A stretch of 64,000 nucleotides of DNA, taken from NCBI GenBank assembly GCA_965661285.1, contig CBFIDD010000001.1, positions 256,001 to 320,000 on the forward strand, read 5' to 3'. This DNA comes from Poseidonia sp. GTDB lineage: Archaea > Thermoplasmatota > Poseidoniia > Poseidoniales > Poseidoniaceae. The translations under genes and the position numbers were made by a program. The notes beneath the pieces were generated by a model that ran no database searches, was not told where the DNA came from, and saw nothing but the letters and a program-made list of their open reading frames with translations. Every line of letters starts with the position of its first letter. The stretch's first letter is position 1. Positions 3-45,214 of the stretch are shown one piece after another.

Positions 3-347
3 TTTTCACTTCGAAATGCACTTGGTGGCAGAAAAAAAGATCTGAAGAAATTGGTCATCAGCCAAATATCTTCAACTGTGTCAATGAATCTTCTCTATGA
101 CCTCTGCAATACTCATGAAGCATTTATCCAATCCGTAATTGATGGTACAGCAACGCCAGTGGATGATTCTCTTCTAGAGTTCTGTATATCTGTTTTAACA
201 GGTGTGGCAAAATCAATTAGCATGGATTACGAAGAGATTTTTTCGGCATTCGTGGGAGACATAGACAAGGTCAGAGAAATAGCACTCAAGATTCAAAATT
301 CCAAAGCAATGGATGCTCTGTTGACTGAATTGGTGAGTTCTTTTTGA
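3..347 (+). CDS. Hypothetical protein, 5'-truncated by the window edge
   Basis: Frame is open from base 3 to TGA at 345-347; AT-richer than the rest of the window; followed by GAGGTG SD and the next gene. Confidence 0.6.
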   Translation, partial: FSLRNALGGRKKDLKKLVISQISSTVSMNLLYDLCNTHEAFIQSVIDGTATPVDDSLLEFCISVLTGVAKSISMDYEEIFSAFVGDIDKVREIALKIQNSKAMDALLTELVSSF

Positions 348-356
348 GGTGAAAAT

Positions 357-1229
357 ATGGCATTAGTATCAGTAAAAAAATTGCAATTGCAAAAAGACAG
401 CACAGCCTCGCGCTCAAAGTTTGTTGAGGGCAAGATCAAACCATTGCACGACCCAACCAAAATATGGGCGAATCCCTTGTGGCCTCTTCCGACCAACGAC
501 GAGGTTGTAGAAGTTGACGGAGTGGAATACAATGAGAATGAAGTTATCAAACTGCTTGACAAAGCGGGTGGTGACTTGAAAAAACTAATTCCTCTATCAA
601 CAACGGAAGAGGCTGCAAGAGTCGCACTAGAAGCGGCAATAGAAGCGCGGAAAATTGCACCATCTGGGGCGAACAAAAAAGCTGCTAAGGCAGTGGAAGC
701 AAAGGCAAAGAAAGTACAGGAAAAGGCGACTGAGGATAAAAATAGTGCCAAAATAAAGATTGAAACAAAACTTGGAATTGCGCTTCATGAATACTTGAAA
801 GACCTGCCAAGGAAGATTCTCTTTGACAACGCTTTTTGGTTCTATCTTTTTTGGAAATCACCAATTTATGGCGTCCATCGATATGAGACTTGGGACCCTC
901 ATGAAAATCAAATAAAGAGCGAGGTCAGAATGTACGGAGGGTGGACAAGAGCGAGTATTCCTGCTGCCTACCTTTCGTATTATCTCGCCAACGAATGCGG
1001 AATTTCTGATGCGGACTACAAGAAGAAGAGATGTGGTGCTCGGTTGCGGATGTGGATTCTTGACGAGTCGCCTCTCATCTCAAACAAACTAAGAAAGAGT
1101 TTTGTATCCGCCGTCATAGGCGGGAAAAACCTTGATGACACATGGAAAGCCTTGTTTCAAAAATTGGGCGCCCTTGATGTTGACACACTGACTCAAGCCC
1201 AGATTGACACTCTGATTGCAGGGCTGTGA
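357..1229 (+). CDS. Hypothetical protein with DUF6339-like C-terminal region (R-M associated)
   Basis: 290 aa; SD GAGGTG upstream; segment LHEYLKDLPRKILFDNAFWFYL...HRY...R resembles DUF6339 proteins, which occur beside cytosine methyltransferases. Confidence 0.55.
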   Translation: MALVSVKKLQLQKDSTASRSKFVEGKIKPLHDPTKIWANPLWPLPTNDEVVEVDGVEYNENEVIKLLDKAGGDLKKLIPLSTTEEAARVALEAAIEARKIAPSGANKKAAKAVEAKAKKVQEKATEDKNSAKIKIETKLGIALHEYLKDLPRKILFDNAFWFYLFWKSPIYGVHRYETWDPHENQIKSEVRMYGGWTRASIPAAYLSYYLANECGISDADYKKKRCGARLRMWILDESPLISNKLRKSFVSAVIGGKNLDDTWKALFQKLGALDVDTLTQAQIDTLIAGL

Positions 1230-1231
1230 TG

Positions 1232-2386
1232 TCAGGATTCTCCTAAGAGAATTATGGCAATGTGCTTGGCCATAAGAGGTGGCACGGCGTTGCCAAGCAT
1301 CTTGTTCAGATTGGTCCGTTTCTGATTGCGGAAGTCGAAGAAGTCCGGGAAGGATTGCACCCTGGCCGCCTCTCGAACAGTGAGGCAGCGTGCCAGCTTC
1401 GGGTGGGTGAACCGACCTCGGCCGTTACACGAGTAGCCGGTCGTGATGGTGGGGGCCGGTCGATCCCAATACATTCGCCCGTACACCGCAGGGTAGGTAT
1501 TGCCGCTTGGCCCGTGTTCGTCGTACTTCTGATGACATTCGGGTCGAAGCTCGGGAGGAAGTTCGTACTCATCGTTCTCAATGAGGTAATCCATACGAGC
1601 CTGGTTCACTTCCTTGGCTGTAGAGGCTGAATTGAGCACATCGTTTTCATCATACACCTCAAGGAGATCCCCAATCGCCCAAGATATGGGCCGCTCTTCA
1701 ATCCCCTGTCGGTGCTGGAATGACGAAAGATTGAGCGTCGAAACCCTGCTGGCGATTGAGAAATGTCGCTTTCGCATTTGTGGCACGCCAACATTTCGGC
1801 CGTCAATCAGGCCTTCAACGGTAGAATAACCCTCAGTCTCCAGCCAATTTTTCGTCTCGCTTACGACGTTTTGTTGCGCCCTTCGAACACCAGCAACATT
1901 CTCAATAATGGCGTATTCTGGCTTGAGTATCTCAATCATTCGAGCCATTCGGAGGTAGAGGAGGTTTCGTTCGTCTGTTCCTCGGGTGTGATTGTTCAGG
2001 TTGGAATTGCCTTGACAAGGGGGGCCACCAACGATGAGATTGATCTCACCAACCGATTCCATGAATTTACGTTCAGATTCGGTCGGAGGTTGCCCGCGTT
2101 CGCCGTCAATCACCGTCTCAATAGGCTCCGATCGAATTTCAACACCGGTGAAATTTTTTGCATAGACCTCTGTTGCGGCCGTGAAAATGTCCCATGCAAT
2201 GACGGGTTGCAATTGGATGTTCAGATCCAAACACGCTGCTTGTACGCCCATGCTGATGCCGCCACACCCAGAAAAAAGGTCAATCATTCGGAGAGTCCGC
2301 TGCGGTAAAGAGCGCAATCCAGGGCGGCGTTTTCTTCGGAGCCACTTCCAGTCTTGGTCCATCTTGGGCCGCTGAACTGACTCCAT
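1232..2386 (-). CDS. DNA (cytosine-5)-methyltransferase
   Basis: Motif I DLFSGCGG, catalytic GGPPCQG, ENV, QMRKR, RCLTVREAARVQSFPD, motif X LGNAVPP. Confidence 0.95.
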   Translation of the reverse strand: MESVQRPKMDQDWKWLRRKRRPGLRSLPQRTLRMIDLFSGCGGISMGVQAACLDLNIQLQPVIAWDIFTAATEVYAKNFTGVEIRSEPIETVIDGERGQPPTESERKFMESVGEINLIVGGPPCQGNSNLNNHTRGTDERNLLYLRMARMIEILKPEYAIIENVAGVRRAQQNVVSETKNWLETEGYSTVEGLIDGRNVGVPQMRKRHFSIASRVSTLNLSSFQHRQGIEERPISWAIGDLLEVYDENDVLNSASTAKEVNQARMDYLIENDEYELPPELRPECHQKYDEHGPSGNTYPAVYGRMYWDRPAPTITTGYSCNGRGRFTHPKLARCLTVREAARVQSFPDFFDFRNQKRTNLNKMLGNAVPPLMAKHIAIILLGES

Positions 2387-2491
2387 GTTATCCTAACGAC
2401 ACCGACAGCATTTAGAGGTTGAGCAGACAATGGTTGAAGTGGAATCTCTCATTGATTAACACTTCAAATAGTCTGGTTGGACATCTCTACC

Positions 2492-3022
2492 ATGACACAC
2501 AAACTGGACCCTGTACTGGACGCTGGACTGCGCTCCAAGGCAAGCTTCATGAAATCTCAAAACGGAGAGAAGTGGGGCTACATTGACACCTTCAAGCACG
2601 AGCAAGGACACTCGAAGTGCGTGTTCGAAACCGATGAAAACGGTTCGTTCCTCCAACTGACCCTGATGAACGAGGACGTCGGTGATGAGCACGTCCCCGA
2701 ACTTCTTGAAGTGATCAACATCATGAACGGCATTCAGGACCAGGTTCGCTTCTTCTATCATCTCGGCAACGGTTCCCTCTTCGCCAAGCGCGAGTTCATC
2801 GTTGAGGGGCGCAAGCCAAAGCAAATTCAGGAGATGGTGTTTGAACGCTACGACCGCATGAAGGACATCTTCGACGACCTGCTCTGGTCCTATGATTGGA
2901 AAGTCAAAACCGGTGGGGATTTCGAAGCCCTCTTCGAGGCCCTTGCCAAGCACAACGAAGACCGCAAAAAACGCAAAGACCGCAACAAAGGAAAGGAAGG
3001 CTTTGACCCTGCTTACGCTTGA
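2492..3022 (+). CDS. Hypothetical protein (possibly YbjN/CesT-like chaperone fold)
   Basis: Host-like codon use; TATA-like TTCAAATA about 22 nt upstream of ATG 2492; fold guess is weak. Confidence 0.6.
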   Translation: MTHKLDPVLDAGLRSKASFMKSQNGEKWGYIDTFKHEQGHSKCVFETDENGSFLQLTLMNEDVGDEHVPELLEVINIMNGIQDQVRFFYHLGNGSLFAKREFIVEGRKPKQIQEMVFERYDRMKDIFDDLLWSYDWKVKTGGDFEALFEALAKHNEDRKKRKDRNKGKEGFDPAYA

Positions 3023-3140
3023 CGCTGGTGCTTCGCCCGCCCTGCACTGGGACAACCGGAAAGGGTGTTGGTTGAGGAATCGTGTTGAGCAGCCGTGAAT
3101 GGAGAGTCAATGTTTTTACTTGTTCCCAAAAGCGAACGCC

Positions 3141-4121
3141 ATGAACGGCAGTGAAAAAGGCCTGCAGGCCCTCAGTCTCGCTGCCATCGTGATCTTGTCA
3201 GCGGTCGTCATGGACCTGTTGAGCGAGCCCGACCAAGACCCTGAAATCGTCTATGTGATGGTTGACAACCGCATCATCATCGATGAAAACACCACTGTGG
3301 AAGAATTGAGCAGAGACGATGTTGCCAGGGTGGCTTCCTTCAACATCAAGGTGTTTGGCGACACCAAGATAAGCAACGCCACCGTCGTAGAGGAACTGGT
3401 GGACCTCTTCCAGCACTACGATTTGGTCGCCGTCCAAGAGATCAAAGACATCGACGAGGAGGTCCCTTTCCTCTTCCTTGATGAGTTGAACGATGTGGGC
3501 GCACAACGCGATGTTCTCAACCAAACGCTCCCGTGGAACATGGTTCTCTCCCAACGAAGTGGCTTGCAAGAGGATGACAGAAACTCTCAGGAGCAGTACG
3601 CCTACTACTACAACCCAACCGTGTTCCGGCCAATGGACAACGGCACCTTGTACGATGACAGCGTGAATGATTCCTTCCAGCGCGAGCCCTTCCTTGCGCG
3701 CTTCATGCTGCTTGATCATGATGGAAATGACACGGGCACCGACATGGTGTTCGTCAACATTCACACCAAACCCACCCGGGCCGTTGAGGAGATGAGCGCC
3801 TTGGGCGATGTCCATGCCTGGGGGCAAACAAACTATTCCGACGACGACGATTACGTCATCCTTGGCGACTTCAACGGCGATTGCTCCTACGCCTCATACA
3901 ACGAGTTGATTGAACTCTCCATCGCTTCGGAGAACTACACGTGGCTGATTCCCGACGATGCTGACACCACGATGGGTGATTCACGATGTGCGTACGACCG
4001 CATCGTGGCCTCAAGCGATTTGGACGGCCGCCTCACAGGCAACTGGGGTATCGATGAACGGGTGAGCAGCGGCGCAGTCTCCGACCACAAACCGGTGTGG
4101 TTTGACATCAAGCGAAGTTGA
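3141..4121 (+). CDS. Membrane-anchored DNase I-like endonuclease/exonuclease/phosphatase
   Basis: N-terminal hydrophobic helix; ASFNIKVFG, AVQEIKD, EQYAYYY, FQREPF, IH, LGDFNGDCSY, CAYDRIV, SDHKPV. Confidence 0.9.
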   Translation: MNGSEKGLQALSLAAIVILSAVVMDLLSEPDQDPEIVYVMVDNRIIIDENTTVEELSRDDVARVASFNIKVFGDTKISNATVVEELVDLFQHYDLVAVQEIKDIDEEVPFLFLDELNDVGAQRDVLNQTLPWNMVLSQRSGLQEDDRNSQEQYAYYYNPTVFRPMDNGTLYDDSVNDSFQREPFLARFMLLDHDGNDTGTDMVFVNIHTKPTRAVEEMSALGDVHAWGQTNYSDDDDYVILGDFNGDCSYASYNELIELSIASENYTWLIPDDADTTMGDSRCAYDRIVASSDLDGRLTGNWGIDERVSSGAVSDHKPVWFDIKRS

Positions 4122-4226
4122 CCTGGCCAAATCGTCTCGAAGGTCATGCCCTTACCTGAATCGAACCGCTCTTGTGCTGACACAATGCTCGCACTCAGGA
4201 AGAGGGAGACACGGGCGGCCTGACGG

Positions 4227-5054
4227 TTAGCCACCCAAGATGAGACTCAGCACCGAAAGGATGAACCCTATGACCATCAGCACCATGAAGCCAGCGATGA
4301 TCACAAAGGATGTACCGAGCCCTTTGGCGAGGGACCAACGCCCGGTGACCGCAGAATATCCAATCATGCCGATAAGCGCAATGGGAACGATGGTGAAGGC
4401 CAGCTGCTGATTTCGAGGTTGTTCAACGTCGTAGTAGTGAGCTTCAGCGCCAAAGTCATGGTAATCAATCCGAAGGCCGATGGATTCGTTGGCTTTACCG
4501 TTGAGTACAAATTCAGCCGTGTGGTTGAGCTGGTCGTATTCGCCGAGTTTGGTCCATTCATACTCCCCACCGCCCACAGCCATGTAGGAGTACATGCACA
4601 CACTTTGCAAGGTTTCAACCTCACAGTTTGCGTAGTAATCGTCTTGATGGAAGTTGTTTAGACCGATGAAAATTTCCGGACGGTAAGCCATGGAGAAGGT
4701 GTTGTAAGAAGGATCGATGAAAATGATGTACACGGATTCTTCCACGCCGTGCGACACCTTGGGGTCTGCATCAAACTGGAAAACGCCGTTGTCATCGCTG
4801 TAAATCGTCCATTCCACCCGTCGATCAAATTCCCAAGCACCTGGCGAAAACAGGCTGCTGTTGGTGAGGAAGAGAACAACGAGTATTGGAATCAAAATAC
4901 CCAACAAAAACAGGGGGCCATTGGCTTCAGGCTCCTGTTGTTCCGGTTCTTCTTCCACCATCGGCGCCGCCTTGACCTCGACTGCGCTCTTGGCTTCCTC
5001 GGGTGAAGAGGCGATGATGACGGGAGCTGGGGCGCTTTCAACCTCATCTGGCAT
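4227..5054 (-). CDS. Hypothetical membrane protein
   Basis: 275 aa; one N-terminal and two C-terminal hydrophobic helices. Confidence 0.75.
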   Translation of the reverse strand: MPDEVESAPAPVIIASSPEEAKSAVEVKAAPMVEEEPEQQEPEANGPLFLLGILIPILVVLFLTNSSLFSPGAWEFDRRVEWTIYSDDNGVFQFDADPKVSHGVEESVYIIFIDPSYNTFSMAYRPEIFIGLNNFHQDDYYANCEVETLQSVCMYSYMAVGGGEYEWTKLGEYDQLNHTAEFVLNGKANESIGLRIDYHDFGAEAHYYDVEQPRNQQLAFTIVPIALIGMIGYSAVTGRWSLAKGLGTSFVIIAGFMVLMVIGFILSVLSLILGG

Positions 5055-5168
5055 GGATTTTCTACGGTTGGGACTGCTATAATGCTGGCCCCTTCAACCG
5101 TCGTTTCATCGAGGTTTCAGGTTCCTTCACGGTGACCACCTGCGATGCACCAACGGATGGAGGTCGGG

Positions 5169-5230
5169 TGGCCCTGGCCGGAATTGAACCGGCTCCTCTG
5201 CTCGCGCAGCGTGCACCTTACACCAAGGGC
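5169..5230 (-). ncRNA. tRNA-like RNA lacking an anticodon (GCGA tetraloop)
   Basis: Minus strand reads GCCCT-TG-GTGT-AAGGT-GCAC-G-CTGC-GCGA-GCAG-AGGA-GCCGG-TTCAATT-CCGGC-C-AGGGC-CA: D arm, perfect T arm, short acceptor stem. Confidence 0.6.
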
Positions 5231-5301
5231 GGGCCGTAGCTCCTCCACCATTCCTCAACCCGAGACACCTGCGTTCGCTTGCCCGTGTGCGAACACCGAC
5301 C

Positions 5302-6846
5302 TCAGTCGGCGCACGAGCCATCGTCAGGGAGGAATTGGAATTGATGCGGCATGGTCGTAACGTCCGTGTAATCGTCCTCGTCCAAGCACACGATGGTCAT
5401 CTCCATCGGCGCTCTGCCCATCATCGGTGGCAGGCAGTCGTAGTACGCCACAACGGCCCTCATCACTTCGCCAAGCGAAGCCGTGCCGTGGGATACGGTC
5501 ACGATGTGCCTGACCTGCATCGATGTGATGCTCGGATACGCCCTGCTGTAGGGTTGTGATTTGGCCAACTCGAGCATCGTTTTGGCGAGCTGCGGCGTGG
5601 CATCCTCGCCCGACCACTTCAGCCTCTTGACGGGATTGCTCATCCACGGCGCTGGCGACTGCAACTCCAGCGTTTGACCAAGCCATCTTGCACACCTTCC
5701 GACGACCTTCTGTCTGAGACTTTCCCTGACCGCCAGCACGGTGTTGGGGCCATGGAGGGCAGGGGCAAGCCTAAGCAGGTCACCGTGGACGATGTGGAGC
5801 TTGAACGCTTCACCCAACAGCCTGTAGGTCCTTTTTGGAAACCCGCCGAGCAAGAGTGAAGGATGGTCGAGCAACCACCTCAGGTAGTCGGCGTAAGCGC
5901 CCGGCGGCCACGCATGCAACGGAGGTGTGGGCCCGAGAAAGGCGGGACCCGGCTCGTGTTCGTCGTGAAACCTTACCCAGTCCCTCATCCACTGTTCATG
6001 TGTCGGTGCATCGGGATGAACGGGCGGGGTGGGTTCGCTGCTGAGCAGGTCGGCCACCGCTTCGGGCGACATCGACACTTCGGGCATGGTCGTCCAAAAC
6101 CAAGGCTGCATGGCGTCGTCCCAGTCTTTCTGCGCGAGGGGACCTTCCACACCGTGATGCACCTCAAACACGCTGGCGCTGTGGGTTTGCATGTTGCCGT
6201 AGAAGTCGGGCGACATCCACTCAACGGGCCCTTTGTTCACGAGCATGGAACCGTTCTCCAGGTGAAGCACGGCCTCACCGCTTGAGGAAAACCACGGATG
6301 TTCCCCGTCAAGGAAATGGGCGTGCTTGAGGTCGAGCACCACGAGACCGCCTTCCCTGATCTTGTGCACGTAAGCACCGATGAGGTGGGGAAACGCTCTG
6401 TCGTCGCCCGTGCTGTGCGGGTCCAACCACTCGAGCCAGTCCACGTAGAGGATGTCCACGGGCGGCGAGGCGGTCAGTTTCGAGAAGGCCTCGTGTTGAA
6501 TGTGAACCTGCCAGTGGGGTGTGGAAAGCGCCGCCTTCCTGTAGACGGCGTGGCCCTGCGACGTGTCTGAAATCCTTTGCCAGGTCGCCATCCCCGCCTC
6601 GTTGGCGTTGATGCCCCAACCATCGGGCGTGTACTCGCTGTACTCCACCACGACATGGATGAAGGGATGACCTGCATCGCTGACCAAACCAAAACTGGCG
6701 TGGTGGTGCATGGCGGCTGCGGGATGGACGATGACCAGCGGCCTTCCCTCAGGCGGCTCGATGGGCAAACCGATGCCAGCGGGCGGCCCGTAAGCCACGC
6801 ACCCACCGAATCCTTGGGGTGCTCTTCTGCTAGCTGCCATGCTCAT
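5302..6846 (-). CDS. Hypothetical protein: SAM-methyltransferase-like N-half plus macro-domain-like C-terminus
   Basis: VDILYVD...KIREGGLVVLD (class I MTase-like); KLHIVHGDL...MTIVCLDEDDY (macro-like ends); TGATG overlap with the upstream gene. Confidence 0.6.
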   Translation of the reverse strand: MSMAASRRAPQGFGGCVAYGPPAGIGLPIEPPEGRPLVIVHPAAAMHHHASFGLVSDAGHPFIHVVVEYSEYTPDGWGINANEAGMATWQRISDTSQGHAVYRKAALSTPHWQVHIQHEAFSKLTASPPVDILYVDWLEWLDPHSTGDDRAFPHLIGAYVHKIREGGLVVLDLKHAHFLDGEHPWFSSSGEAVLHLENGSMLVNKGPVEWMSPDFYGNMQTHSASVFEVHHGVEGPLAQKDWDDAMQPWFWTTMPEVSMSPEAVADLLSSEPTPPVHPDAPTHEQWMRDWVRFHDEHEPGPAFLGPTPPLHAWPPGAYADYLRWLLDHPSLLLGGFPKRTYRLLGEAFKLHIVHGDLLRLAPALHGPNTVLAVRESLRQKVVGRCARWLGQTLELQSPAPWMSNPVKRLKWSGEDATPQLAKTMLELAKSQPYSRAYPSITSMQVRHIVTVSHGTASLGEVMRAVVAYYDCLPPMMGRAPMEMTIVCLDEDDYTDVTTMPHQFQFLPDDGSCAD

Positions 6847-7394
6847 CAGATGCACCTCGGATGATAGAGCGGGACAACCCTGAAGATTCTCTTGGTTTGC
6901 CTCTCAAGTCTGCTGTACGCCTCAGCCTTGCACACACCGCCTGACGTAGCCGACTTGGCCGTGTCGTAGATGGTATCACCGTGCAAGGTGATGATGTGAG
7001 CCGTGCACAACTTCCCCGAAGGTTGCGGGTCGGAAGGCGGGTCCTTGGAGTAGAAGCAGAGGAAGAAGAGGTCGTCGTAGGTCACCAATTCGTCCACGAA
7101 GTATTCCAGTCTCCTGACATCGTTGTTGCAATAGGCCAACTGCATCCCGTAGGGCTTTAGCGCCTCCGACCATGTGTGGGGTGCCTGTGAATTGGTCACC
7201 GCCTTGAAGTCCTCTGGCGTGGTGTTCGCTCCCGTGGCGTTGGCCACCATCGACAGCGTCGTGGCGACGCACGAAGGACCGACCTGCTTGATGTGCTCAA
7301 TGGTCACGTCGCCAAAGAAGGGGCCGTGGGGTTCGCCGTGTCTCTCGCTGTACCACAATGGTGCGGAGGGGTTCGGTCTCCAAGTGACGGTCAT
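6846..7394 (-). CDS. C39-like cysteine peptidase family protein
   Basis: QVGPSCVATTLSM (Q-x4-C) and AHIITLHGDTIYD (H, D); ATGA overlap with the upstream small ORF. Confidence 0.7.
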   Translation of the reverse strand: MTVTWRPNPSAPLWYSERHGEPHGPFFGDVTIEHIKQVGPSCVATTLSMVANATGANTTPEDFKAVTNSQAPHTWSEALKPYGMQLAYCNNDVRRLEYFVDELVTYDDLFFLCFYSKDPPSDPQPSGKLCTAHIITLHGDTIYDTAKSATSGGVCKAEAYSRLERQTKRIFRVVPLYHPRCI

Positions 7395-7618
7395 TCCCAT
7401 TCCTCCCTGAAAGCGTCGTCGAACTCTTGCCACTGCTTTTCGTCGTCGGGCAAGGGTTGTTCGGTCAGGGCTTTCATGATGCAATCTGGGCACGAGCACG
7501 GTCTCTCGATGTACTCGCTCATGTCTTGCACCCTCAGTTTGGTCAACTCGTTCTGGAGCCTGAAAAACTCCATCACCAGCATCATCAGTTTCGTCCATTC
7601 GTTCTCATTTTTCTTCAT
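7391..7618 (-). CDS. Small hypothetical protein with CSCPDC motif
   Basis: 75 aa from ATG 7618 with GGAG SD; fills the gap in the operon. Confidence 0.6.
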   Translation of the reverse strand: MKKNENEWTKLMMLVMEFFRLQNELTKLRVQDMSEYIERPCSCPDCIMKALTEQPLPDDEKQWQEFDDAFREEWE

Positions 7619-7634
7619 CTTTTCATCTCCTTGT

Positions 7635-8456
7635 TCATTGATACTCAAAATCCTCGGGTCTTCCACCCGGCCATTCCCTCTCCATCTCTTCCACATACGC
7701 CTGCCTGTTCTGCGCCTCCTCGTACTGCATCACCCAGATGTGCTGGTCCTCCAAACAGAGGTGAATGAGCGACAAGAGGTTGGAAGGAAAGGTGCCCTCC
7801 AGGTGGTCGATGCAAAAATACTGGTCGTGGGTGTAGACCGTGGTTTGGCCCCCGTATTCGGGAATGTGTTCGGGGCAGGTCCAGTACTCGCCCAGCGAGT
7901 GAGCGACGTTGTTGGCGTACATGTAAGGGGGCGGCGCCCACTTCCACGCCATCGGTTTTGACGCAGCGGCCTTCTTCCTTGCCTGGTATGCGACAAAGGT
8001 CCCGGGCGCACCCCACTTCTCGAGGTCAAGACAGAAATCAAAGGCAAATTCGTGCCCGTTCTTCCCCTGAACGGTGATGGTGTAGCCGTCCATGGAAACG
8101 GTAGGATGGTCATGCACCGTCTCCGCTAAGGCAAGCCAGTGCTCTCTTTGCACCCAATCCTCGTGCGTGTCGATTTCAGGCATCAGGAAATGAAGCCCGA
8201 TGTCCATTGAGGTCAAGCACAACTCCCAGCTGGGCCATGTGTCCCACCTCGTCTTGTTCGCGATGTTGTGCTGGTTGTAGGCCGCAAAGATGCCAAAGAA
8301 GGCTGCAGGCTCGTCCAAGTTGGCGTTATGGTCAATCAGTTCGTCGGGATGGGTGTAGCCGTTGGCCACAAACCACTCCCCTTCTCTGCCAACCACGAAG
8401 GTATCGGGCTTGGCGTGGTGGTTCTTCTCGTTGTTCTGTTCATGTTCGTTGTTCAT
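7635..8456 (-). CDS. Hypothetical Trp-rich protein
   Basis: Start moved to ATG 8456 (AGGAG upstream) so that the ORF does not overlap the tRNA. Confidence 0.7.
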   Translation of the reverse strand: MNNEHEQNNEKNHHAKPDTFVVGREGEWFVANGYTHPDELIDHNANLDEPAAFFGIFAAYNQHNIANKTRWDTWPSWELCLTSMDIGLHFLMPEIDTHEDWVQREHWLALAETVHDHPTVSMDGYTITVQGKNGHEFAFDFCLDLEKWGAPGTFVAYQARKKAAASKPMAWKWAPPPYMYANNVAHSLGEYWTCPEHIPEYGGQTTVYTHDQYFCIDHLEGTFPSNLLSLIHLCLEDQHIWVMQYEEAQNRQAYVEEMEREWPGGRPEDFEYQ

Positions 8457-8501
8457 AGGTCTCGCTCCTGTGTTGCGTTTATGCACCGCCGTGCGTCGAA
8501 T

Positions 8502-8576
8502 TGGCTGGGGCACCGGGATTCGAACCCGGGTCAAAGGTCTCGCAAACCAATATGCTCTCCACTACACCATGCCCCA
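8502..8576 (-). tRNA. tRNA-Arg(GCG), CCA encoded
   Basis: TGGGGCA/TGCCCCA acceptor, D loop with GGA (A20), loop TT-GCG-AG, T arm CCGGG-TTCGAAT-CCCGG, G73-CCA; weak anticodon stem. Confidence 0.85.
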
Positions 8577-8588
8577 ATGGTCGGGAAC

Positions 8589-8663
8589 TGGCAGAGGCAC
8601 CCGGATTCGAACCGGGGTCCAGGGATCCGAAGCCCCTGATGCTATCCGCTACACCATGCCTCC
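8589..8663 (-). tRNA. tRNA-Arg(TCG), CCA encoded
   Basis: GGAGGCA/TGCCTCT acceptor, AGGGG-CT-TCG-GA-TCCCT anticodon arm, CCCGG-TTCGAAT-CCGGG, G73-CCA. Confidence 0.95.
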
Positions 8664-8737
8664 TTGCAGTTCCCAACGAAACGGCGGTTGCACTCAGGGT
8701 GTCAAACGCCGGTTCGCTTGTGCCGTGAATCGTTGGA

Positions 8738-8800
8738 TCAACGGCGATGTCGGGAGGGTCGCTTGGTGTCATTTCGGACGCTGTTGTGTTCATCCATCAT
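8738..8800 (-). CDS. Putative 20-aa Arg-rich leader peptide MMDEHNSVRNDTKRPSRHRR
   Basis: GGAGG SD 7 nt upstream; TATA box at 8840-8847; five CGN codons. Confidence 0.35.
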   Translation of the reverse strand: MMDEHNSVRNDTKRPSRHRR

Positions 8801-8839
8801 GCTCGACCCTCCGGAGTAAAGTGTGGAATGGGCATCAAA

Positions 8840-8847: not shown

Positions 8848-8968
8848 CCTTTGTGCTACTTTTCATATACTCATCCCACATGAACGCATCATATTTTCCC
8901 AAATCCTCCCCCCAGAACGAGGAAAAGACGCGCAAAAACGCTTGTAACCGACAATGAAGGGTGTATCA

Positions 8969-8974
8969 TTATAA
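8969..8974 (+). promoter_or_regulatory. TATA box for a probably leaderless CD36-like gene
   Basis: TTATAA about 24 nt upstream of ATG 8998; no SD. Confidence 0.5.
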
Positions 8975-8997
8975 CCTCAACGGCCCGAGGTTCGTTC

Positions 8998-11691
8998 ATG
9001 ACAACTGGAATGTCACCCCGAAACATGCTGATTGCCGGAATCGTCTTGGTTCTGCTGAACGTTGCTGCGCTTGCTCCATTGGCCACCGGTGCCGTTGAAG
9101 ACGTGGTGGACGAAACCTTCGAAGATTACTCCAAGGACGCCGTCTGCGCCAACGATGACTGTACCGAAGCCGAGGAAGACTGGGCTTCGTCCACGGCCCA
9201 GCGCGACTACTACGCGTGGGACGTCACCAACCTCGCTGAGGTCATGGGCGGTGCGGCACCGATCACCGAAAAGGTCGGACCCTTCACCTACGACATCACC
9301 ACCACCCGCACCATCAACAACTACGATGCAAATGCCGGTGAATTGACCTACAACGCCGTGAAGACCTTCGAGTGCGCTGCCGACAGCGCCGTCTCCTGCG
9401 ACACCGAGGTCACCCAACTCAACATCCTCTTCCAGGCCCAAGTGATCGGTGCGACCGGTATGGCCATGGGCGGCATCATGGACTTGACCAAGGTCGGGTT
9501 CGCCGTTCAAATGGTCCTTCAGGACATGAACACCACGCAGGCCGGCACCGCCAGTGTGGGCGACATGTGCATGGCCGACATGAACGGCGACGGAACGCCC
9601 GATGCGATTCCATGCCACTCTTGGGCCAACGGTGGACAAGCTGCACTCGCAGTGTCCGAAACCGGCATGGGCATCAAGATGATGAACAACGATGACACTC
9701 TCAACACCACCATGGATTCGGGTGATGCCTTTTCCGAGGGCAGCCTCGACGCCGCCATGACCGGCACGTCCCACCCAGCCGACCCGAACTTCAACATCTC
9801 GTTGATGACGCCGCTCGGCTCTGTGGCCTTCATGGGCCTGGGCGCACCAGAGACGCTAATCTCTGACGTGTTCGCTGACCCTTCCAATTCCACCGTGATG
9901 GCACGAGCCACCACCTATGGCTATCTTGCGATGGCCGACGCCACCACGCCCGACTTCTACACGACCTTTGTTCGAGACTGGGCCATGTACGCAACGGTGG
10001 GTGCCAGTTTCCAGGCTTACGGCGGCGGCAGCGACGCCAACCTCACGAACAACGACGACCTTGCCATGCGACTCCACAACCTTGTCGGCGTCGACATGAC
10101 CGGCGTGAACGCCGTTGGCCTGATGACCGCTGGCCACATGACCGACACCCCAACGGGGATTGTCGCCACCAACGCTGAGGGCACATCCTTCGGCATGGCC
10201 GCTTTCCTCGGCATGGAAGCCGGTGACGTGATGACCTCCTACAACATGACCGCAGAGCAGTACGGCGCTGTAGCAAGTTGGGTCGGAGGATGGGCCACCT
10301 CCCAATCATCTGCACAACTCGGCCTCCTTGGCGGCGTGGGCACCATGAACGCAGAACAATTTGTGAACCAAACCTTCGGAGGCATGAGCCCCGTTGGCGA
10401 CCCCTACCTCGAGCGCTCACTGAACCTCGGCGGCGCCTGGAGCAGCCTGTACGGCAACGAACCGGTTGACTTGACACAGGAACAATCCGCCAAGATCCTC
10501 TACGACCCCATGATTGGACTGACCACGCGAGGCGGTGCAACCCTGTTCATTTACGGCGAGTTGGCCGGCATGACCCCGCCGATTGACTTCACCACGATGG
10601 AATCCGGCACCCCTATGGTCTGGGACGCAGCCACCATCGGCGCCCTCTACGGCATCGACACCAACGCTGCCACCGCCCTGCGAGCCCTCATCATGGGACC
10701 CATCTACGGCACGACGGATGATTCGTTCGTGCCCGACTACCTCATGTCCACGTTTGGCACGACGCCCTACCTCACGCAATCCTTCAACAACTGGCTCATC
10801 GGCTGGCACGACCCCGTCAACGCCTTCCTCGCCACGGGCAACCCGATGGACATGAGCGTCGGGTGGTCATCGCTTGAAAGCAACGCCACCTACTTTGGTT
10901 CGGGCGGCATCGCTAACGGCGACGGCACCAACTACACGATGTGTACGGGTGAAGTGGCCGGATGCGACAAGGGCGAAACCCTGGCTGAAGACGGTTCAAC
11001 GCAACTTTCGTGGCGCAACGACGCCATGATGGCCGCCACCTACGGCCTCATCATGCCCGAGCCCCTCGTCGGCACCACCGGTGGCTTCCTAACCGGCACC
11101 GAGGACAAGGTTGACGTCAGCGGCTACGTGATTGCGGACGTTGAGCGAACCGGCGACAGCACGCTGAAGGGTATCCCCGTCTATGACTACGAAGCCAAGC
11201 AGGACGCACCCGGACGGAGCATCCAAGCCAACCTCATGGAGACCTTCAGTCTGCTCGACGCCACCCCCGGCGCCCTCCCCGTGTACTTCTCCACGGAGAT
11301 CACCATGCAGGCTGAACAACTCTCCGGCCTCATCATCGCTGGCTCCTCGACCAACACCTTCTACCTTGACAACCGTGCACACACGGACCAAGCCAGCACG
11401 CCAACGATGGACGACCTAGATCCCGTGTTCGAGATTCAGTCCTCCTCGATGATCGAAGACGACGACGCAGAAGAGATGGAAAGCGCCATCGTGCAAAACC
11501 AAAACAGTTTGACCTATTGGACGAACTTTGACTCGTGGATTGACTTCGTCACCCTCCTGTTCTGGGTCGGTGGCATCGCCATGATCGGTATCGGCATGGT
11601 TGGCGCAGCCAACACACCCGCCGAGGACGAAGGCAAGGACTTCTCAGCCTCTGCTGGGGACGAAGCTGCTCCAGAAACTGTTCAAGAGTAG
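8998..11691 (+). CDS. CD36/LIMP-2 family-like protein (two terminal TM helices, large ectodomain)
   Basis: YYAWDVTNLAEVMGGAAPITEKVGPFTY resembles the CD36 motif; GWHDP, KGIPVYDY, AEQLSGLII; strongly biased codon use. Confidence 0.7.
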   Translation: MTTGMSPRNMLIAGIVLVLLNVAALAPLATGAVEDVVDETFEDYSKDAVCANDDCTEAEEDWASSTAQRDYYAWDVTNLAEVMGGAAPITEKVGPFTYDITTTRTINNYDANAGELTYNAVKTFECAADSAVSCDTEVTQLNILFQAQVIGATGMAMGGIMDLTKVGFAVQMVLQDMNTTQAGTASVGDMCMADMNGDGTPDAIPCHSWANGGQAALAVSETGMGIKMMNNDDTLNTTMDSGDAFSEGSLDAAMTGTSHPADPNFNISLMTPLGSVAFMGLGAPETLISDVFADPSNSTVMARATTYGYLAMADATTPDFYTTFVRDWAMYATVGASFQAYGGGSDANLTNNDDLAMRLHNLVGVDMTGVNAVGLMTAGHMTDTPTGIVATNAEGTSFGMAAFLGMEAGDVMTSYNMTAEQYGAVASWVGGWATSQSSAQLGLLGGVGTMNAEQFVNQTFGGMSPVGDPYLERSLNLGGAWSSLYGNEPVDLTQEQSAKILYDPMIGLTTRGGATLFIYGELAGMTPPIDFTTMESGTPMVWDAATIGALYGIDTNAATALRALIMGPIYGTTDDSFVPDYLMSTFGTTPYLTQSFNNWLIGWHDPVNAFLATGNPMDMSVGWSSLESNATYFGSGGIANGDGTNYTMCTGEVAGCDKGETLAEDGSTQLSWRNDAMMAATYGLIMPEPLVGTTGGFLTGTEDKVDVSGYVIADVERTGDSTLKGIPVYDYEAKQDAPGRSIQANLMETFSLLDATPGALPVYFSTEITMQAEQLSGLIIAGSSTNTFYLDNRAHTDQASTPTMDDLDPVFEIQSSSMIEDDDAEEMESAIVQNQNSLTYWTNFDSWIDFVTLLFWVGGIAMIGIGMVGAANTPAEDEGKDFSASAGDEAAPETVQE

Positions 11692-11798
11692 GCCCAATGT
11701 TCGAGAAAAGGTCGCAAAACCGGCCTTTTCCCCCCGACTATAGGGGGAAGAACATATAGGGACTCAAACAACGGTAGCACGAAGAGAACATCTCTTCG

Positions 11799-12965
11799 GT
11801 GAACAGCTTGAGTTGCAAGTTGAACCTCCCCCTCGGCCCTTCGCTGCGCGACCAATCCCTCGAGGCTGACCTCCAAGCCCGTTTGGACGATGGACATCGT
11901 CTCTTCGTCGTGGGCGATGTTCACGGGCACATGGCCACCTTCCGAGCGCTTCTCCATCGACTCAACCTCAAGCCGGAGGACCGTGTGGTGTGCCTGGGCG
12001 ATATGATCGACCGTGGTCCAAACGCTGCGGGCCTTGTGGAGCTGCTGCGAAGCCATCCCCAAGTGATTTGCATCAAGGGCAACCACGAGCAGATGGCGGC
12101 ACAATCGATTCAGGCCGACGGCTCTTTTGAAGCGTGGCAGCCGTGGATGCAGCGGGGTGGTAAGTCGACCTACGCCTCCTACATCGTTCAAGCCGAAGGC
12201 GATTTGTGGCAGGCCAAACGGAACATGGTGGACGATTTCATGTGGCTTGACAACCTCCCAACCCAAATCGTGCTTGACGATGTTCGCTTCGTTCACGCCG
12301 GCTATGACCCACGCATGCCTCTGGACATGCAGGGTGAGAAGGAACTCCTCTGGATTCGCAAGGCTTGGACCCAACACGAAGGTGCCGTTGACCCGGCAAG
12401 GACCGTGTTCTTCGGCCACACGACCACCACCAAACTGGGTGACGCTGCCGGAGAAGTCGCCCGCAGCGCAACCTTGCTGCCCGACGGCCGCCCCTCTTGG
12501 GTTGGTTTGGATGTTGGCGCCTACAATCATGTCTCGCCGGCCCTCGCCGCCATGGACGTGCGAACGCTTCGTGTGGTCATGCAGCCCACCCTGCGATGCG
12601 ACCGATGGTTTGAGCGGATCAACCGGCAAAAAGGAAAGAAGGACGCCCTCTGGAAGGGGGAAGGGAACCTCCGTGAAGCAGAAGTCTCCCTCAGTTTTGG
12701 TCTCAAAGCCTTGGCGACACGGGCAAAGAAGGCTCGGGTCTCCACGCACAGAGCCCAGCGAGAACTCGAAGAGGCGGGCGTGGTGTTTCCGCATTCCCAC
12801 GTGAACCAAACCACAGAGGGTTATCGTATCTTCAAACGGGCGGCGCAACGGGCCAAAGAAGCCTCTCTCCCTCGCGGACCCACCTCGTTTCGCGTGTACC
12901 GAAAGCGAACGATGAACGCCAACACGGCAGCAGAACAACGGCGTCGCCTTTCCGGTGTAAGTTAA
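11799..12965 (+). CDS. Calcineurin-like metallophosphoesterase (PrpA/ApaH-like)
   Basis: GDVHG, GDMIDRGP, GNHE, VHAG, FGHT, LDVG; basic C-terminal tail. Confidence 0.9.
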   Translation: MNSLSCKLNLPLGPSLRDQSLEADLQARLDDGHRLFVVGDVHGHMATFRALLHRLNLKPEDRVVCLGDMIDRGPNAAGLVELLRSHPQVICIKGNHEQMAAQSIQADGSFEAWQPWMQRGGKSTYASYIVQAEGDLWQAKRNMVDDFMWLDNLPTQIVLDDVRFVHAGYDPRMPLDMQGEKELLWIRKAWTQHEGAVDPARTVFFGHTTTTKLGDAAGEVARSATLLPDGRPSWVGLDVGAYNHVSPALAAMDVRTLRVVMQPTLRCDRWFERINRQKGKKDALWKGEGNLREAEVSLSFGLKALATRAKKARVSTHRAQRELEEAGVVFPHSHVNQTTEGYRIFKRAAQRAKEASLPRGPTSFRVYRKRTMNANTAAEQRRRLSGVS

Positions 12966-25398: not shown

Positions 25399-25502
25399 GT
25401 CTGCGTGGCAATGACCGAGACTCTTGAACCCTCGCGAGACGAGCAAGGTTGGGCTGACCGTTCAACCAATCTTTGATGAGGTTCTCCGGTTTGGTTCGTC
25501 TC

Positions 25503-28500
25503 ATGCAGACGCAACGCCGCAGAACCTCACTCGTTTTCTTTGCGCTTCTTTTGGTTCAGGTGTTGTCGCCGTTGGCGTTTGTCCAAGCGGACCAATCGAC
25601 CTACCAACCCGATACCGATGCGGCGTTGGAGTGGCTCGAGCAGGTCGGTGTTTCTCCCACCACCACCGCTGAACACGGGTGGATGAATGCAGATGAAGCG
25701 GCCGGTTCCAGCGCCCTGCTCTATCGAGACGTGCAACTGGTGGCCACCGAAGAATGGCGTGAGCGCACCGGGGAAACGCAGGTGGACGGCTACCACATTT
25801 TGGGCCATACCTACCCCGTGCCCAGCGAGTGGTTCAACGAGCTCGCTGATGCGGGCATCGATTGTTTCTCCTTCCTTCCTCCGGCGAGTTTCCACTGCCA
25901 CGTCAACGGCCAGACGCCGGCTCAACTGGAACAACTCGATGTGCTCGGATTGGCGGCCATGGACGCCAGCGACAAAGTCCAAACCGACCTGCTTCGCGGC
26001 CTCCTCGGTCTTGACATGGTGGCCTACAACCCCTTCGTGAACGACGAAGGAGCCATCGTGAACGTCGTCTTGTCGGGTGAAACCCTCCCGGAAGGCTTGA
26101 CGCAACGCAGCGATATCGTCCTCGACACGCACAGCGGCCGATTCGCCACGATGGCCATTGACACCGATGGTTTGGCGTGGTTGGTTCAACAAGATGCGGT
26201 CGAGTGGGTTGAGCCCCGTCCGTTCTATGAGATCATGAACTCAAAGGGCATCGAAGTGATGAACGTCGACGACATGTGGAGTTCCACCAACATGGCCAAC
26301 ATCGACAGTTCGTGGGCCGGGCTGGACGGCAGTGGCATCATTGTGACCGTCGCCGACACCGGATTGGACAACGGCGTGAACAACAGTAACATGCACCCGG
26401 ATTTCAGCGACCACATCACGGGCATTCTCTCGTTCCCCCCGCCCGCATCGGTGTGCACGGCCTTCAGCCTGAGTCCTTGCGGCGACGATGCTGAAGACCA
26501 CGACGGACACGGAACCCACGTGGCGGGCTCGGTCCTTGGTGACGGCACCCACAGCAACGGCGACATCATCGGTGCGGCGCCCGAAGCCCACCTGTTGTTC
26601 CATGCCATTGCCACCACCCACAACAGCGAGGAGAAACTTCTCGGCATTCCAAACGATCTTGACGACATGTTCGCACTCGCCTGGGAGAACGACAGCCGGA
26701 TTCACACCAACTCGTGGGGGTCAGCGGTTGCAGGACAATACACCTCCTCATCCATGCAAGCGGACGCCAGCGCCCGAACGCACGACGAGATGGTGATTCT
26801 CTTTGCTGCAGCCAATGAAGGTGCGGACGCCGACCGCAACGGTGAGATCGACCTCGATTCCATGGGTTCACCGGCGACAGCCAAAAACGTCCTCACCGTG
26901 GGTGCGAGTGAAAACGACCGCGGGAACATGACCTGGGTTTGGGGCAGCACCGATTACGGCTCACCCATCTCCAACGACCGTCTAGCGGATAATCCGGAAG
27001 GCATGGCGGCGTTTTCCTCCCGAGGACCCACCGACGACGGCCGCCTAAAGCCCGATTTCTCAGCACCGGGCACCATGATTCTCTCTGCAAAGAGTCGAAG
27101 CACAACCGATACGGGTTGGTTGGCGCACAACGCCAGCTACACCTACATGGGCGGGACGAGCATGGCCACGCCGCTCACGGCCGGTGCATCGGCGCTGTTG
27201 CTTGAGCACCTGATGGAAAACCTCGGGGAAAGCAACCCAACCTCTGCGCTGGTGAAGGCCATCTTTACCGCCAGCGCTCACGACATGACCGGACAATATT
27301 CCTCCTCCACCAACGGAGCGGGCGAAGCGGCACCCAACGACCACGAAGGCTGGGGTCGAATCAACATGTCCCAAGCCATCAACACGTCCTATCTGTACAA
27401 CCACTCGGTGACCACCGACGCCGACTCAGGGTGGTCGTTCAACGTCCCAGCAAGTGCGGATGACATCAACATCGCCCTGGCATGGACCGACCCGGCCTCA
27501 ACGCCGGCGGCCTCCACCAACTTGGTCAACGACCTTGATTTGGCCCTCAAGAGCCCATCAGGCACCTGGACGAATTTGAGCAACAACCTCGACAATTTGC
27601 GAGGACTGACGCTCGCCTCACCGGCCCAAGGCACATGGGAGGTCCACGTGGTGGGCACCAGCGTGCCAACCGGCCCGCAATTCTTCGCTTTGGCCATGAC
27701 GGGAGACTACACCCTCACGAATCTGACGCAGGACGCCGACATGGACGGTTACGAAGACGATGATGATGACTGCAACAACACGGCGGGCACCTCAACCGCT
27801 GATCGAACCGGGTGCCCCGACACCGACGGGGACGGCTATTCCAACCCGGACAGCAACTGGACCGTCAACCAAGGTGCGGATGCCTTCCCAAGCGAACCGA
27901 CGCAGTGGGCCGACAGCGATTACGACGGCTACGGCGACAACGCCGTTGGCGATGAGCCGGACGCTTGCACCTCCACGGCTGGAAACTCCACCGGCGACCG
28001 GTTCGGCTGTACCGATACCGATGGCGATGGGTATTCCGATCCCGATAGCGGTTGGACCGTCGCCAACGGAGCAGACGCGTGCACGAGCGTCGCCGGCCCC
28101 TCAAGCCAAGACCGCAACGGCTGCGCTGACCAAGACGGTGATGGCTACTCCGACCCTGACGGTTCGTGGGGTACAACCAACGGTGCGGATGCTTTCCCCA
28201 CCGATGCCACCCAATGGGCGGACGCCGACGGCGATGGCTACGGCGATAACCCGCCGCCGGCGACATCAGGTGATGCCTGCCCGAGCACCAACGGCGGGTC
28301 CGATCAAGACCGCTACGGATGCACGGACACGGACGGCGACGGCTACTCCGACCCCGACAGCGGTTGGACCGTCGCCAACGGGGCCGACGCTTTTGCCTCC
28401 GATGCGACCCAGTGGGTCGACACCGACGGTGACGGTTATGGCGACAACGCCAGCGGAAACAGTCCTGACGCCTGCCCGACACAGGCCGGCACCTCCACAC

Positions 28501-35606: not shown

Positions 35607-36377
35607 TCAGGCACCGCTTCGTTGGGTTTTACACCCAACACCCCAATCCGGCTCGGCCTCCATCGCCCTGCGTGTTTGTTCGAGAAGCACGTCCTCGGGC
35701 GTCGGTGAGGTAGGGGTTGCGGACGTGTACGCCAGCGATAAATGATAACCGCTTTCCGTCCAATATTGCAATTGGATTTTTGATTTTTCAATTGAAATTT
35801 GGTCGGTTTCATTCTCAATTGGAATTTCAATTTCCCGGGGGTTGAGGTGCATCCCTTGGCCCAGACATTTTTGCACCGCTTCCTTCCCCGTCCACAAACG
35901 GAAAACATGCTCCGGTGCTTTGCGAAGGCGCTCGAGTTCGCTGCCTTTGGCCATCATATCGAAGGCGTTCTCTGCGAGGGTTCGGTCAACGGGTTCTGCA
36001 TCAAGTCCCACCCGAAGAGCAGGGGGTGCGAGGGCGACAAACGCCATGCCGTCACTGTGAGAAATCGAAACATTCGGTAGCGGCGTTCGTCTCCAAACAC
36101 CTTGAATGAAATGGATGGAAGGTGCCCTGAACTCGTCCCTTCGTACTTCCAGCACCGAGAGGTCGCCCACGCCCCACCATTCGAGCGCCTCTCCCAAGAG
36201 GCGGCGGCCCGTCAAGTGTTCACAACGACGCTTTCCGGTGACGAACGTCTGAACCTCGCTCGCCTGTGCAAGAGGAACCTCCGCAAGGTTCCAGTCCCGC
36301 ACGGGCATGACAAACACCTCCACCTTTCCATCGGGAGGCGTGAGCCGTTGAATCCCCACGCCAGACCCCTCGCTCAT
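35607..36377 (-). CDS. Sfp-type 4'-phosphopantetheinyl transferase
   Basis: SISHS, VGLDAE, WTGKEAVQKCLGQG; ATGA overlap with the megasynthase stop. Confidence 0.92.
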   Translation of the reverse strand: MSEGSGVGIQRLTPPDGKVEVFVMPVRDWNLAEVPLAQASEVQTFVTGKRRCEHLTGRRLLGEALEWWGVGDLSVLEVRRDEFRAPSIHFIQGVWRRTPLPNVSISHSDGMAFVALAPPALRVGLDAEPVDRTLAENAFDMMAKGSELERLRKAPEHVFRLWTGKEAVQKCLGQGMHLNPREIEIPIENETDQISIEKSKIQLQYWTESGYHLSLAYTSATPTSPTPEDVLLEQTRRAMEAEPDWGVGCKTQRSGA

Positions 36378-39300
36378 CGCTCCAGTGAAAACCGTTGGTT
36401 GTCATCAACCGTAGCCATGGCTTTGAGTTGCAACCCTTTGAGGGCCAACACAGGAGCATCGTCCTCACCGACGATAACAACGTCGTGAACGGTGATGCCA
36501 TCACCCGGGGCGCCAACTTGGAGGCTTCGCAACCGAAGCGTTTCATCAGCATCGGGAACCCTCAGCATGGTCGACCAGGCGATACCCACGGGAAGGCTGC
36601 TGTAGCCAAGCAGTTCCATGGCCACGAGGCCTGCGTTCTGGAAGCCAGCTTCGATCAGCATCGGGAGCGCTTCGAGCAACACCTGCTCACCGTCAGATTC
36701 CAAGGCAAACTGGTCTGTTTCGGGGAGTTGATGTCGCATCAACGCCAGCCCGTCAATACCTTGTCGGCCTTCATCACCAACGCCTCGAAGCACACCTCCG
36801 TGAGATTGGAAGCGTGGGCCGTGGAAGTACCGGTCGTAGATGAAGGAGGCGGGATGGAGCACATCGCCCGATGGAGGTGTGCCCGTTTCGGGTAATTCAT
36901 CGACTTCACCTTGCAAGAACGGCCGCAGGTCTTCGTGCTTCTCGATAAGACGAACAAGCGCCGAGTGGTGTTCTCGCTCGCCGAACACTTCGCCCTTTGA
37001 GTTGGCCAAATCTGACACCAAACGACAACGCACCCATGTAAGGTCGCCTTCGGAGCGTTCGATATTGACCTCAACACGAACCGTCATCGGGCCTTTCAGA
37101 AGTTTGACGGGCAGCCCAAAGCTGACCTCTTCAAAACCAGCTAAACATGTGGTGGGGAGGAGAAGCAGCGAGGATTGGGCAAACATTTCGAGGGCCATCA
37201 CGCCAGGGTGGTAAGGGACGCCCTCAATGGCATGGTCGGTCAAGAAAGGATGGTCCTCCTCCGAAAGGGTGGTCTGGGTGACCATGTGCTGGTGTTCTTC
37301 CAAGGCCACGACCTTGTCGACGAACGGGAACCGTGTGGGGTCAGCGATGGTGGCGGCCATGCTCGGAGGCAACTTCAGCGGTGCTTCTCGGAACGAATCA
37401 AAGCGGTCCATCACGCCCAGCGTACCGCACCCAAGCACCCTGCGTTTTCCACCCTGAAGGGCTTCGGCAACGAAGAGGGCCACGCCGTCCTCAACGGCGA
37501 GCGTCTCAATACCTGCAGCAGCGAAGACCGCTTCAATGGAGCCTCGGGTGGCCATGCCAACATCGCGCCAACCCGTCCAACCGATGGCCACCGCCCTGCA
37601 GGCCGTGGTCGCCGTCAGGCGTGCCATTTCAGCATCCAGGACCGAGTTGGCGGCAGCGTAGTCTGTTTGTCCGCCGTTTCCAAACCGACCGGCCACGCTG
37701 GTGAAACAGCAAGCGAAGTCGGGAACGTCCCGTCCCGAAGCCTGAACGGCCGACATCAAAGCCCGCCAACCGTCAATCTTCACCCGAACAACCCGATCGA
37801 ACACCTCGTAGGCTTTGTCGGCAACGAGCTTTGAGTCTTCCAAACCTGCGCCGTGAACGATTCCGGTGATGGGGCGTCCAAGCGACGCCCCAAGTTGTGC
37901 AAGGCCTTCGTGGTCCATCACGTCGATGGAGTGGTAGGTAGCCTGATTGCCGGTTTGAACGATGGCGTCCAGCGTGAGATAGACATCGCGACTGCGAGTA
38001 AAGCGTTGCCACGCAGTATTCCATTCCACCATGGTGACCTTTCCGGTTTCACTGGCCTCGATGAGGCGCTCACGCAGGGCGTTCTTCTCCTCAGCGAGTT
38101 GGTCTTCGGTCCAGCCAATCCAATCGGCGGTCGATTCGATAAGGGTTGAGCGACCAAGCAACTCGAAGTGCGCTCCGGCCTTTGGACTCGCTTGAGCGAC
38201 GCCGATGATGGACGCAGCCGTCACACCAGAGCCACCGCCGGACACCAACCACGTATCTTCGGCTGTCAACGGTTGGACCTCCTCCACAACGTCCTCTGCG
38301 AAAGCGACCAGCGACCAGCGGCGTCCGTCTCGGTCAAGACCAATCTCGACTTCTCCCGCAAGACCGAGCAGGTCCTTTTCGATGCGCTGTGCAGCATCGT
38401 CGGCCTCCAAAACAAAGTCAGGATGAAGGTCCAGCGCACGACAACGAAGGTCGGGACGCTCGAAGGCATACGACTTCGTGATGCCGCTGGCGGCACATTG
38501 GATCGCATTGAAGCGGTCGCCCTTGTTTCCGTGCCGTCCGTCGAGAGAAGAAACAGAGGCGATAAAGCCGGAGGAATCAGTTGGGATGCTCTGGCCCAAT
38601 TCCTTGAGAAGGCCAAACCAGCCCTGGGCTGCGAGCGCGATTTGAGAGGATGGATAGGTGTCTTCGGACCACTGCTCTGATGCGAGTTTCATCGGCGCCA
38701 TGTGAACCAGGCCTGCAAGGCGAACGCCGGCGAGTTGGGTTGCAATCCAAGCCAAATGCTCGGGTTGTTCGGGGTCGGCTCGGAACACGGTGCGACCGGC
38801 TTCTTCCTGACGAGATGCATCGCGAATGCGGCTCTCAAAGCCAATGCGAACAGCGCTCAAACCTCGCGCCTCCATGCGCTGACAAAAGGCTTCAGCGATG
38901 CCCCAGCCGTCGTCAGACACGACCACCGTGCCTTCGGGATGCAGCGGAGCGGCCACACCCGGACATCCTTCTATTTCCACTTGCCATCGGCGAGGACCCT
39001 CTGCGTGGGTCGAGGACGAGACGGGGGCAGAGATTTCGGCCACCTCATCAGCAACCTCAACCTCAGGTGCCTTTGGCGTCGGGCTTCCGCCCTGCATCTT
39101 CACGATGTAGGCGGTGAAGTGGTTCAGCGTCGGATGGTCTGCGAGCACAAAGTCTTCGTCAACGGGCAGCGAGAAGCGGTCCCTGATTTCGGCCATGATC
39201 TCGGCTTGTTTGACCGTATCAATGCCCAGTTCACCCTCGAGATCCTGGTCCAATTCGATGAAATCCGCTGGGTAGCCTGTGTGGTCGACGACGACCGAAA

Positions 39301-45205: not shown

Positions 45206-45214
45206 GTGAACACC

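Follow-up and report, generated by a model that had tools for sequence, protein, structure and literature searches.

Can an archaeon carry a class B scavenger receptor (SR-B) of the CD36 type and, if so, what might it do there? The question is raised by an intact open reading frame (ORF) at 8998..11691 of a 64,000-nucleotide stretch of Poseidonia sp. DNA (hereafter the window; GenBank GCA_965661285.1, contig CBFIDD010000001.1, positions 256,001 to 320,000), which a sequence-only reading had taken for a CD36-like lipid-uptake protein. The host, whose relatives are labelled Candidatus Poseidoniaceae, Thalassarchaeaceae or Poseidoniales, belongs to the Marine Group II (MGII) archaea, which are among the most common microbes in surface seawater. 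The gene is single-copy in the host genome and encodes 897 residues on the plus strand, as do all of its features given below. Its product is a genuine CD36/SR-B relative in which two anchors flank a complete CD36-type barrel, and which bears a large helical cap with a tip that is exchanged between strains.

A CD36-type barrel between two membrane anchors

PF01130 (CD36) is the sole Pfam family matched at E ≤ 0.1 (54.8 bits, E = 7.6e-15, cut-off 26.5), and the ORF is the only match to PF01130 and to our family profiles in the host genome. Among 34 family members, all matched CD36 at E ≤ 0.1, whereas six weakly matched PorA/DUF3068 (PF11271; best E 0.0038). PF11271 stays below its cut-off of 29.5, with 13.9 bits here (11149-11421, in the C-terminal half of the barrel) and 17.0 bits in the best homolog. 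All eight matches of the family profiles to 177,635 PDB sequences are LIMP-2 or CD36 (best E 3.3e-7). Three colinear segments align to LIMP-2, the second and third being weak alone (7.2 and 0.4 bits); they correspond to the conserved motifs of the long strands and the apex strand-helix linker, their assignment to motifs M1, M2, M6 and M17 following the text of the motif paper rather than its logos. In the predicted structure an asymmetric antiparallel β-barrel spans the ectodomain, matches the CD36 β-barrel and resembles SR-B structures much more than that of the mycobacterial protein LmcA.

By hydropathy there are exactly two hydrophobic segments, in windows at residues 5-34 and 846-872, and the model renders both as helices. 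The N-terminal helix (residues 7-30; 9016..9087), whose G14 is conserved in at least 90% of 70 homologs, could be a cleaved signal peptide; the C-terminal helix (residues 847-871; 11536..11610) is followed by a short acidic tail modelled with low confidence, to 11688. Between them, the N-terminal half of the barrel (residues 34-142; 9097..9423), defined by the PF01130 match at residues 56-173 and by alignment to LIMP-2, contains YYAWDVTN (residues 71-78; 9208-9231) and KVGPFTY (residues 92-98; 9271-9291). The C-terminal half (residues 614-831; 10837..11490), placed by structure comparison and the same alignment, contains GIPVYDY (725-731) and AEQLSG (772-777). The topology and motifs described in the sequence-only reading are thus all present. 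Ahead of the start codon, at 8969..8991, consensus matches suggest a TATA-like element (TTATAA, 8969-8974) and a Shine-Dalgarno-like GAGGT (8987-8991).

A helical cap with an exchanged tip

Models, LIMP-2 alignment and composition define an apex insert of residues 143-576 (9424..10725), which is mostly helical and begins with a modelled 45-residue helix (residues 145-189). Its approximately 430 residues stand for residues 115-128 of the LIMP-2 construct, with the insertion falling between 114 and 129, and this is the α4/α5 position of the variable helical apex of SR-Bs. Folded alone, residues 143-590 give a mostly helical model with a mean predicted local distance difference test score of 95.0 and a predicted template modelling score of 0.88. 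The models show a cap that folds independently, where animal CD36 has its ligand-binding apex of three helices. The long Gly/Ala/Met-rich insert noticed from the sequence was borne out: Met reaches 7.8% (residues 185-364) and 6.6% (365-590), Gly 10.6-14.2% and Ala 10.6-13.9%, against 2.7, 8.6 and 9.3%, respectively, in 885 called genes, and Lys and Arg together make up about 2% of the insert.

After the insert, alignment to LIMP-2 and the model identify retained SR-B apex elements (residues 577-613; 10726..10836), namely a helix, the strand-helix TQSFNNWLIGWHDP, which aligns to LIMP-2 VTHTVDELLWGYKD, and the next helix. W599, L600, G602, W603, D605 and P606 are conserved in at least 90% of the 70 homologs. 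The cap itself is about 170 to 280 residues smaller in three sampled species groups; about residues 190-370 are missing in genus g163, and about residues 160-440 in two species of g17. Because these forms of g163 and g17 nest with long relatives at 100% support, they are probably secondary losses. Such natural short variants, of about 620 and 730 residues, offer ready-made tests of cap function.

Within the insert lies an exchangeable tip (residues 185-364, most variable over 181-260; 9551..10089), recognised by in-frame replacement between near-identical flanks. A contig of run X3 differs from the window by one letter over 8953-9550 and by ten over 10090-11818, while between 9550 and 10090 the window's 539 letters are replaced by 521 different ones, a difference of 18 that keeps the frame. 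Contigs of run X2 break off and resume at the same two places. At the protein level, identity to homolog P0010 reaches 93-100% across core, stalk and cap base, yet 29% over residues 185-270, and the group containing P0066 shows 83-90% identity over residues 591-700 and 12-16% over 185-270; more distant proteins (about 50% identity in the N-terminal core) mostly retain 42-48% there. Trees of core, tip and cap base from 39 selected sequences reject each other in approximately unbiased tests (p ≤ 3.2e-4), which used fast trees and short alignments of related sequences. The tip is thus exchanged between strains. The barrel is kept under purifying selection. The tip also has the lowest codon adaptation in the gene (0.68 vs. 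0.74-0.83). Between alignable alleles its ratio of nonsynonymous to synonymous substitution rates is 0.18-0.23, indicating purifying selection, and therefore the variation looks like an exchange of old alleles rather than fast point change. Since the tip starts at the far end of helix 145-189, we infer from the model that it is membrane-distal. It might either tune what is bound or vary to evade viruses, and its swapping likely marks a surface of contact with viruses or ligands.

Lipid capture and its rivals

MGII archaea are uncultured and abundant and, in the literature searched, are thought to live on proteins and lipids; that literature names peptide and amino-acid transporters and no entry route for lipids. 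By analogy with its family, we slightly favor the reading that the protein is a cell-surface SR-B with which Poseidoniales capture lipid-like cargo and pass it on to the cell membrane. The ectodomain would face outward and the cap would dock on lipid-bearing material such as membrane fragments, vesicles or phytodetritus. A hydrophobic molecule could then move through the cavity of the barrel to reach the outer leaflet, with no energy source, and the delivered lipid might feed β-oxidation. The gene is a concrete, expressible candidate for lipid uptake in uncultured MGII cells.

Several observations weigh against this reading. Animal SR-Bs function also in adhesion and sensing. Of the five tunnel charges of LIMP-2 that could be mapped by low-scoring profile alignments, only K97 retains a charge (as R104), whereas E93, R95, K381 and E413 map to the uncharged I100, T102, S784 and S815. 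A profile search detected the gene in 310 of 356 Poseidoniales genomes and in none of 45 from elsewhere in the class, and did not find it in the genera g5 (0/11), g18 (0/11) and g14 (0/2); a divergent query, run with no positive control, found no match in five genomes of these genera. All four genomes tested from gene-lacking genera nevertheless keep 3-hydroxyacyl-CoA dehydrogenase. A lipid-gene neighborhood conserved across the order was not found among 38 loci compared. Finally, the strong codon bias, from which high expression had been surmised, is real, since codon adaptation ranks 42nd among 1,269 called genes of at least 150 residues (the top 3-4%; EF-2 ranks 50th) on home-made gene calls and a reference of 20 ORFs of the ribosomal-protein cluster, but the surmise itself holds only in part. 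The supplement of a published metatranscriptome labels two MGIIb genes "CD36 family PF01130," and one of them has 0.88-1.34 coverage per million in samples FN140-FN151, about a quarter of EF-1alpha (3.4-5.5), with proteorhodopsin at 6.5-30.8, dnaG at 0.58-1.13 and cysS at 0.12-0.37 (PMC9723583). This homolog is transcribed above several housekeeping genes, at a moderate and not an extreme level.

An adhesion or recognition receptor, whose cap would bind particles, algal surfaces or partner cells on a barrel that is mainly a stalk with little transport, is the alternative that survives best, although we consider it unlikely. The cap, whose tip is hypervariable and exchanged, makes up half of the ectodomain, apex expansions in eukaryotes have been proposed to set ligand specificity in the survey cited (10.1101/2023.11.13.566873), and parts of the MGII literature describe particle association. 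Against this, the three species groups described above have reduced caps, whereas the barrel is complete and conserved, and therefore we argue that the barrel carries the indispensable function.

Somewhat less probable again is a role in envelope biogenesis, in which the protein would move the cell's own lipids or glycolipids outward, as mycobacterial LmcA/PgfA do, and would have taken the place of the PorA/DUF3068 proteins seen in sister lineages. The distribution of PF11271 is indeed the reverse of that of the CD36-type gene (1/94 Poseidoniales, 8/10 genomes of the sister family in the class, 64/306 genomes outside the order), and PgfA is reported, in the literature searched, to coordinate lipid trafficking. 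In g163 (L118 4001-9305) and the related lineage L121, the gene stands directly upstream of genes for an ATP-binding cassette (ABC) ATPase and a double FtsX-type permease. In the host genome, however, this pair lies about 166 kb away, the few gene-lacking genomes tested have no PorA-type substitute (g5 0/3, g14 0/1, g18 0/1), a strain-swapped tip would be unexpected in a housekeeping exporter, and the structure is far nearer to SR-B than to LmcA.

Animal SR-BI and NinaD take up carotenoid or retinal, a precedent for dedicated uptake for proteorhodopsin, and the host has two rhodopsin matches. Receptor and rhodopsin are uncoupled over 401 genomes, both where the receptor prevails (g17 14/14 vs. 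0/14; g16 18/18 vs. 3/18; g13 10/12 vs. 1/12) and in the converse (g5 0/11 vs. 10/11; g18 0/11 vs. 7/11), which largely refutes such a role and makes it very improbable. That the gene is a eukaryotic contaminant, an assembly error or a chance match of motifs, conceivable for a family described from eukaryotes, is refuted and deserves practically no credence, as the gene is intron-free, lies on the largest contig of a genome that is 93% complete and 0.08% contaminated, has fibrillarin, Nop and PCNA genes alongside, uses host-adapted codons and recurs in 310 genomes.

Surroundings, origin and known relatives

Gene neighbors differ by genus. In the window, two tRNA-Arg genes lie upstream, and genes for a metallophosphoesterase, LysE and Fpg downstream. 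From genome labels and likeness to published MGIIb genes, we infer that families f1 and f2 are Poseidoniaceae and Thalassarchaeaceae, respectively. In four f2 genera the gene sits between a TctA-family gene and a gene for a secreted lamin-tail/phospholipase-D-like protein, a pair that is adjacent on another contig in the host genome; three f2 genera have it in divergent orientation to a gene for a PF01553 acyltransferase. Neither these nor the ABC/FtsX arrangement amounts to an operon, and we treat them as leads. At L073 and L081, the gene directly 3' of the receptor gene encodes a secreted protein in which lamin-tail, PhoX phosphatase and phospholipase-D-like domains are fused and which could act on phospholipids or DNA.

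Elsewhere in the window, 293-8812 is a variable region with lower G+C content at its left end, ending at the tRNA-Arg genes (8502-8663); it encodes a C5 DNA methyltransferase, and several of its ORFs match no Pfam family. Divergence between related strains is about 10-14% there and about 1% or less from 8953 on. A 1873-residue protein (25473-31094, plus strand) combines a subtilase, a long Asp/Gly/Cys-rich repeat run and a C-terminal hydrophobic anchor. A 2943-residue iterative type I polyketide/fatty-acid synthase (35607-46006, minus strand; KS, AT, three ACP, KR, DH) is flanked by genes for a phosphopantetheinyl transferase and an enoyl-ACP reductase and has close homologs in four of five other genomes of the order tested. 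An acidic, apparently secreted and C-terminally anchored protein of 1992 residues (49528-55506, minus strand; no Pfam match at E ≤ 1e-5) is a candidate surface-layer or adhesion protein, and a 93-nt tRNA-like gene (57805-57897, minus strand), assigned no anticodon by ARAGORN, possibly contains an intron.

Within the order, the core tree departs from the genera, with two divergent types each in g1, g2, g3 and g16; in g16 two divergent paralogs stand head to head less than 100 bp apart (L070 2923-8165; L071 2852-8121). Outside it, 306 genomes of the phylum sample gave five marginal PF01130 matches (E 0.008-0.01), none above the cut-off. This restriction to one order, together with SR-B-specific motifs, points to an acquisition at the base of Poseidoniales. 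The deeper branches of SR-B trees are poorly resolved. As rough estimates, a eukaryotic donor has a little under an even chance, and a donor among the Asgard archaea or a shared archaeal SR-B lineage, suggested by three table rows with SCARB1 or CD36 as best structural match (PMC12962969, supplementary file 3), has a slightly smaller one; descent from a local PorA protein with convergence seems unlikely. PorA-type proteins are not detectably close to the CD36-type family in profile-profile comparisons based on shallow alignments of five sister-family sequences (probability 2.6%) and 12 from other Thermoplasmatota (4.4%). Among the 150 phmmer matches listed, none is a clearly Asgard or eukaryotic protein. 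PorA, described as exclusively actinobacterial in one account, also occurs as proteins of about 740 residues with several tandem PorA/DUF3068 matches in other Thermoplasmatota (L035, L036, L041, L055), and as split forms of 680-1090 residues beside a proteasome ATPase gene in the sister family (L063-L067).

A broader scenario, which we regard as rather doubtful, is that the Poseidoniales ancestor, with either a eukaryote or an Asgard archaeon as donor, acquired an SR-B gene and dropped its PorA-type barrels, the receptor now being the main lipid scavenger and its tip a recombining cassette circulating among strains under pressure from viruses or prey type. If true, a dominant ocean heterotroph would possess a prokaryotic scavenger receptor with allele-swapped specificity.

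The view that such receptors are eukaryotic holds for the main texts consulted; that of a survey of 165 eukaryotes, with 279 SR-Bs, mentions neither "archaea" nor "prokaryot" (Boohar et al., 10.1101/2023.11.13.566873). It does not hold throughout, as bacterial structural relatives are published and one supplement lists SR-B-like Asgard proteins (cog.006344, cog.010189 and one iESP; PMC12962969, supplementary file 3). Two of these rows are credited to Liu et al. (2021), and term searches of the main texts of both papers found no mention of them. An archaeal CD36-like protein is thus catalogued already, yet we found no discussion of one in the literature searched. Judged from their table rows, the three Asgard proteins resemble ours in being archaeal and SCARB1- or CD36-like, and two of them match over residues 19-796 and 20-696 and may carry inserts too.

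Compared with eukaryotic SR-Bs (CD36, 5LGD; LIMP-2/SCARB2, 4F7B and 4Q4B; SR-BI; insect SNMP1; PF01130), the present protein has an archaeal host, an ectodomain of about 810 rather than about 400 residues, and 456 rather than the 37 residues of LIMP-2 between the NI and WL.GW landmarks. It is also acidic throughout, has most tunnel charges replaced and bears an exchangeable tip. Protist SR-Bs (Dictyostelium LmpA, Phytophthora, Tetrahymena) share a helical expansion at α4/α5 without known homologs, an apex that the survey describes as expanding independently, and the archaeal ectodomain falls within their reported range of 413-2294 residues (10.1101/2023.11.13.566873); weak searches found no sequence link between the archaeal cap and any eukaryotic expansion. 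LmcA/PgfA (7N3V; PF11271) lacks the apex helix bundle, part of which the archaeal protein keeps in residues 577-613. Because prokaryotes are now represented, with the Asgard entries and LmcA, on either side of the split between SR-B and PorA, the Poseidoniales family informs where CD36-type receptors came from.
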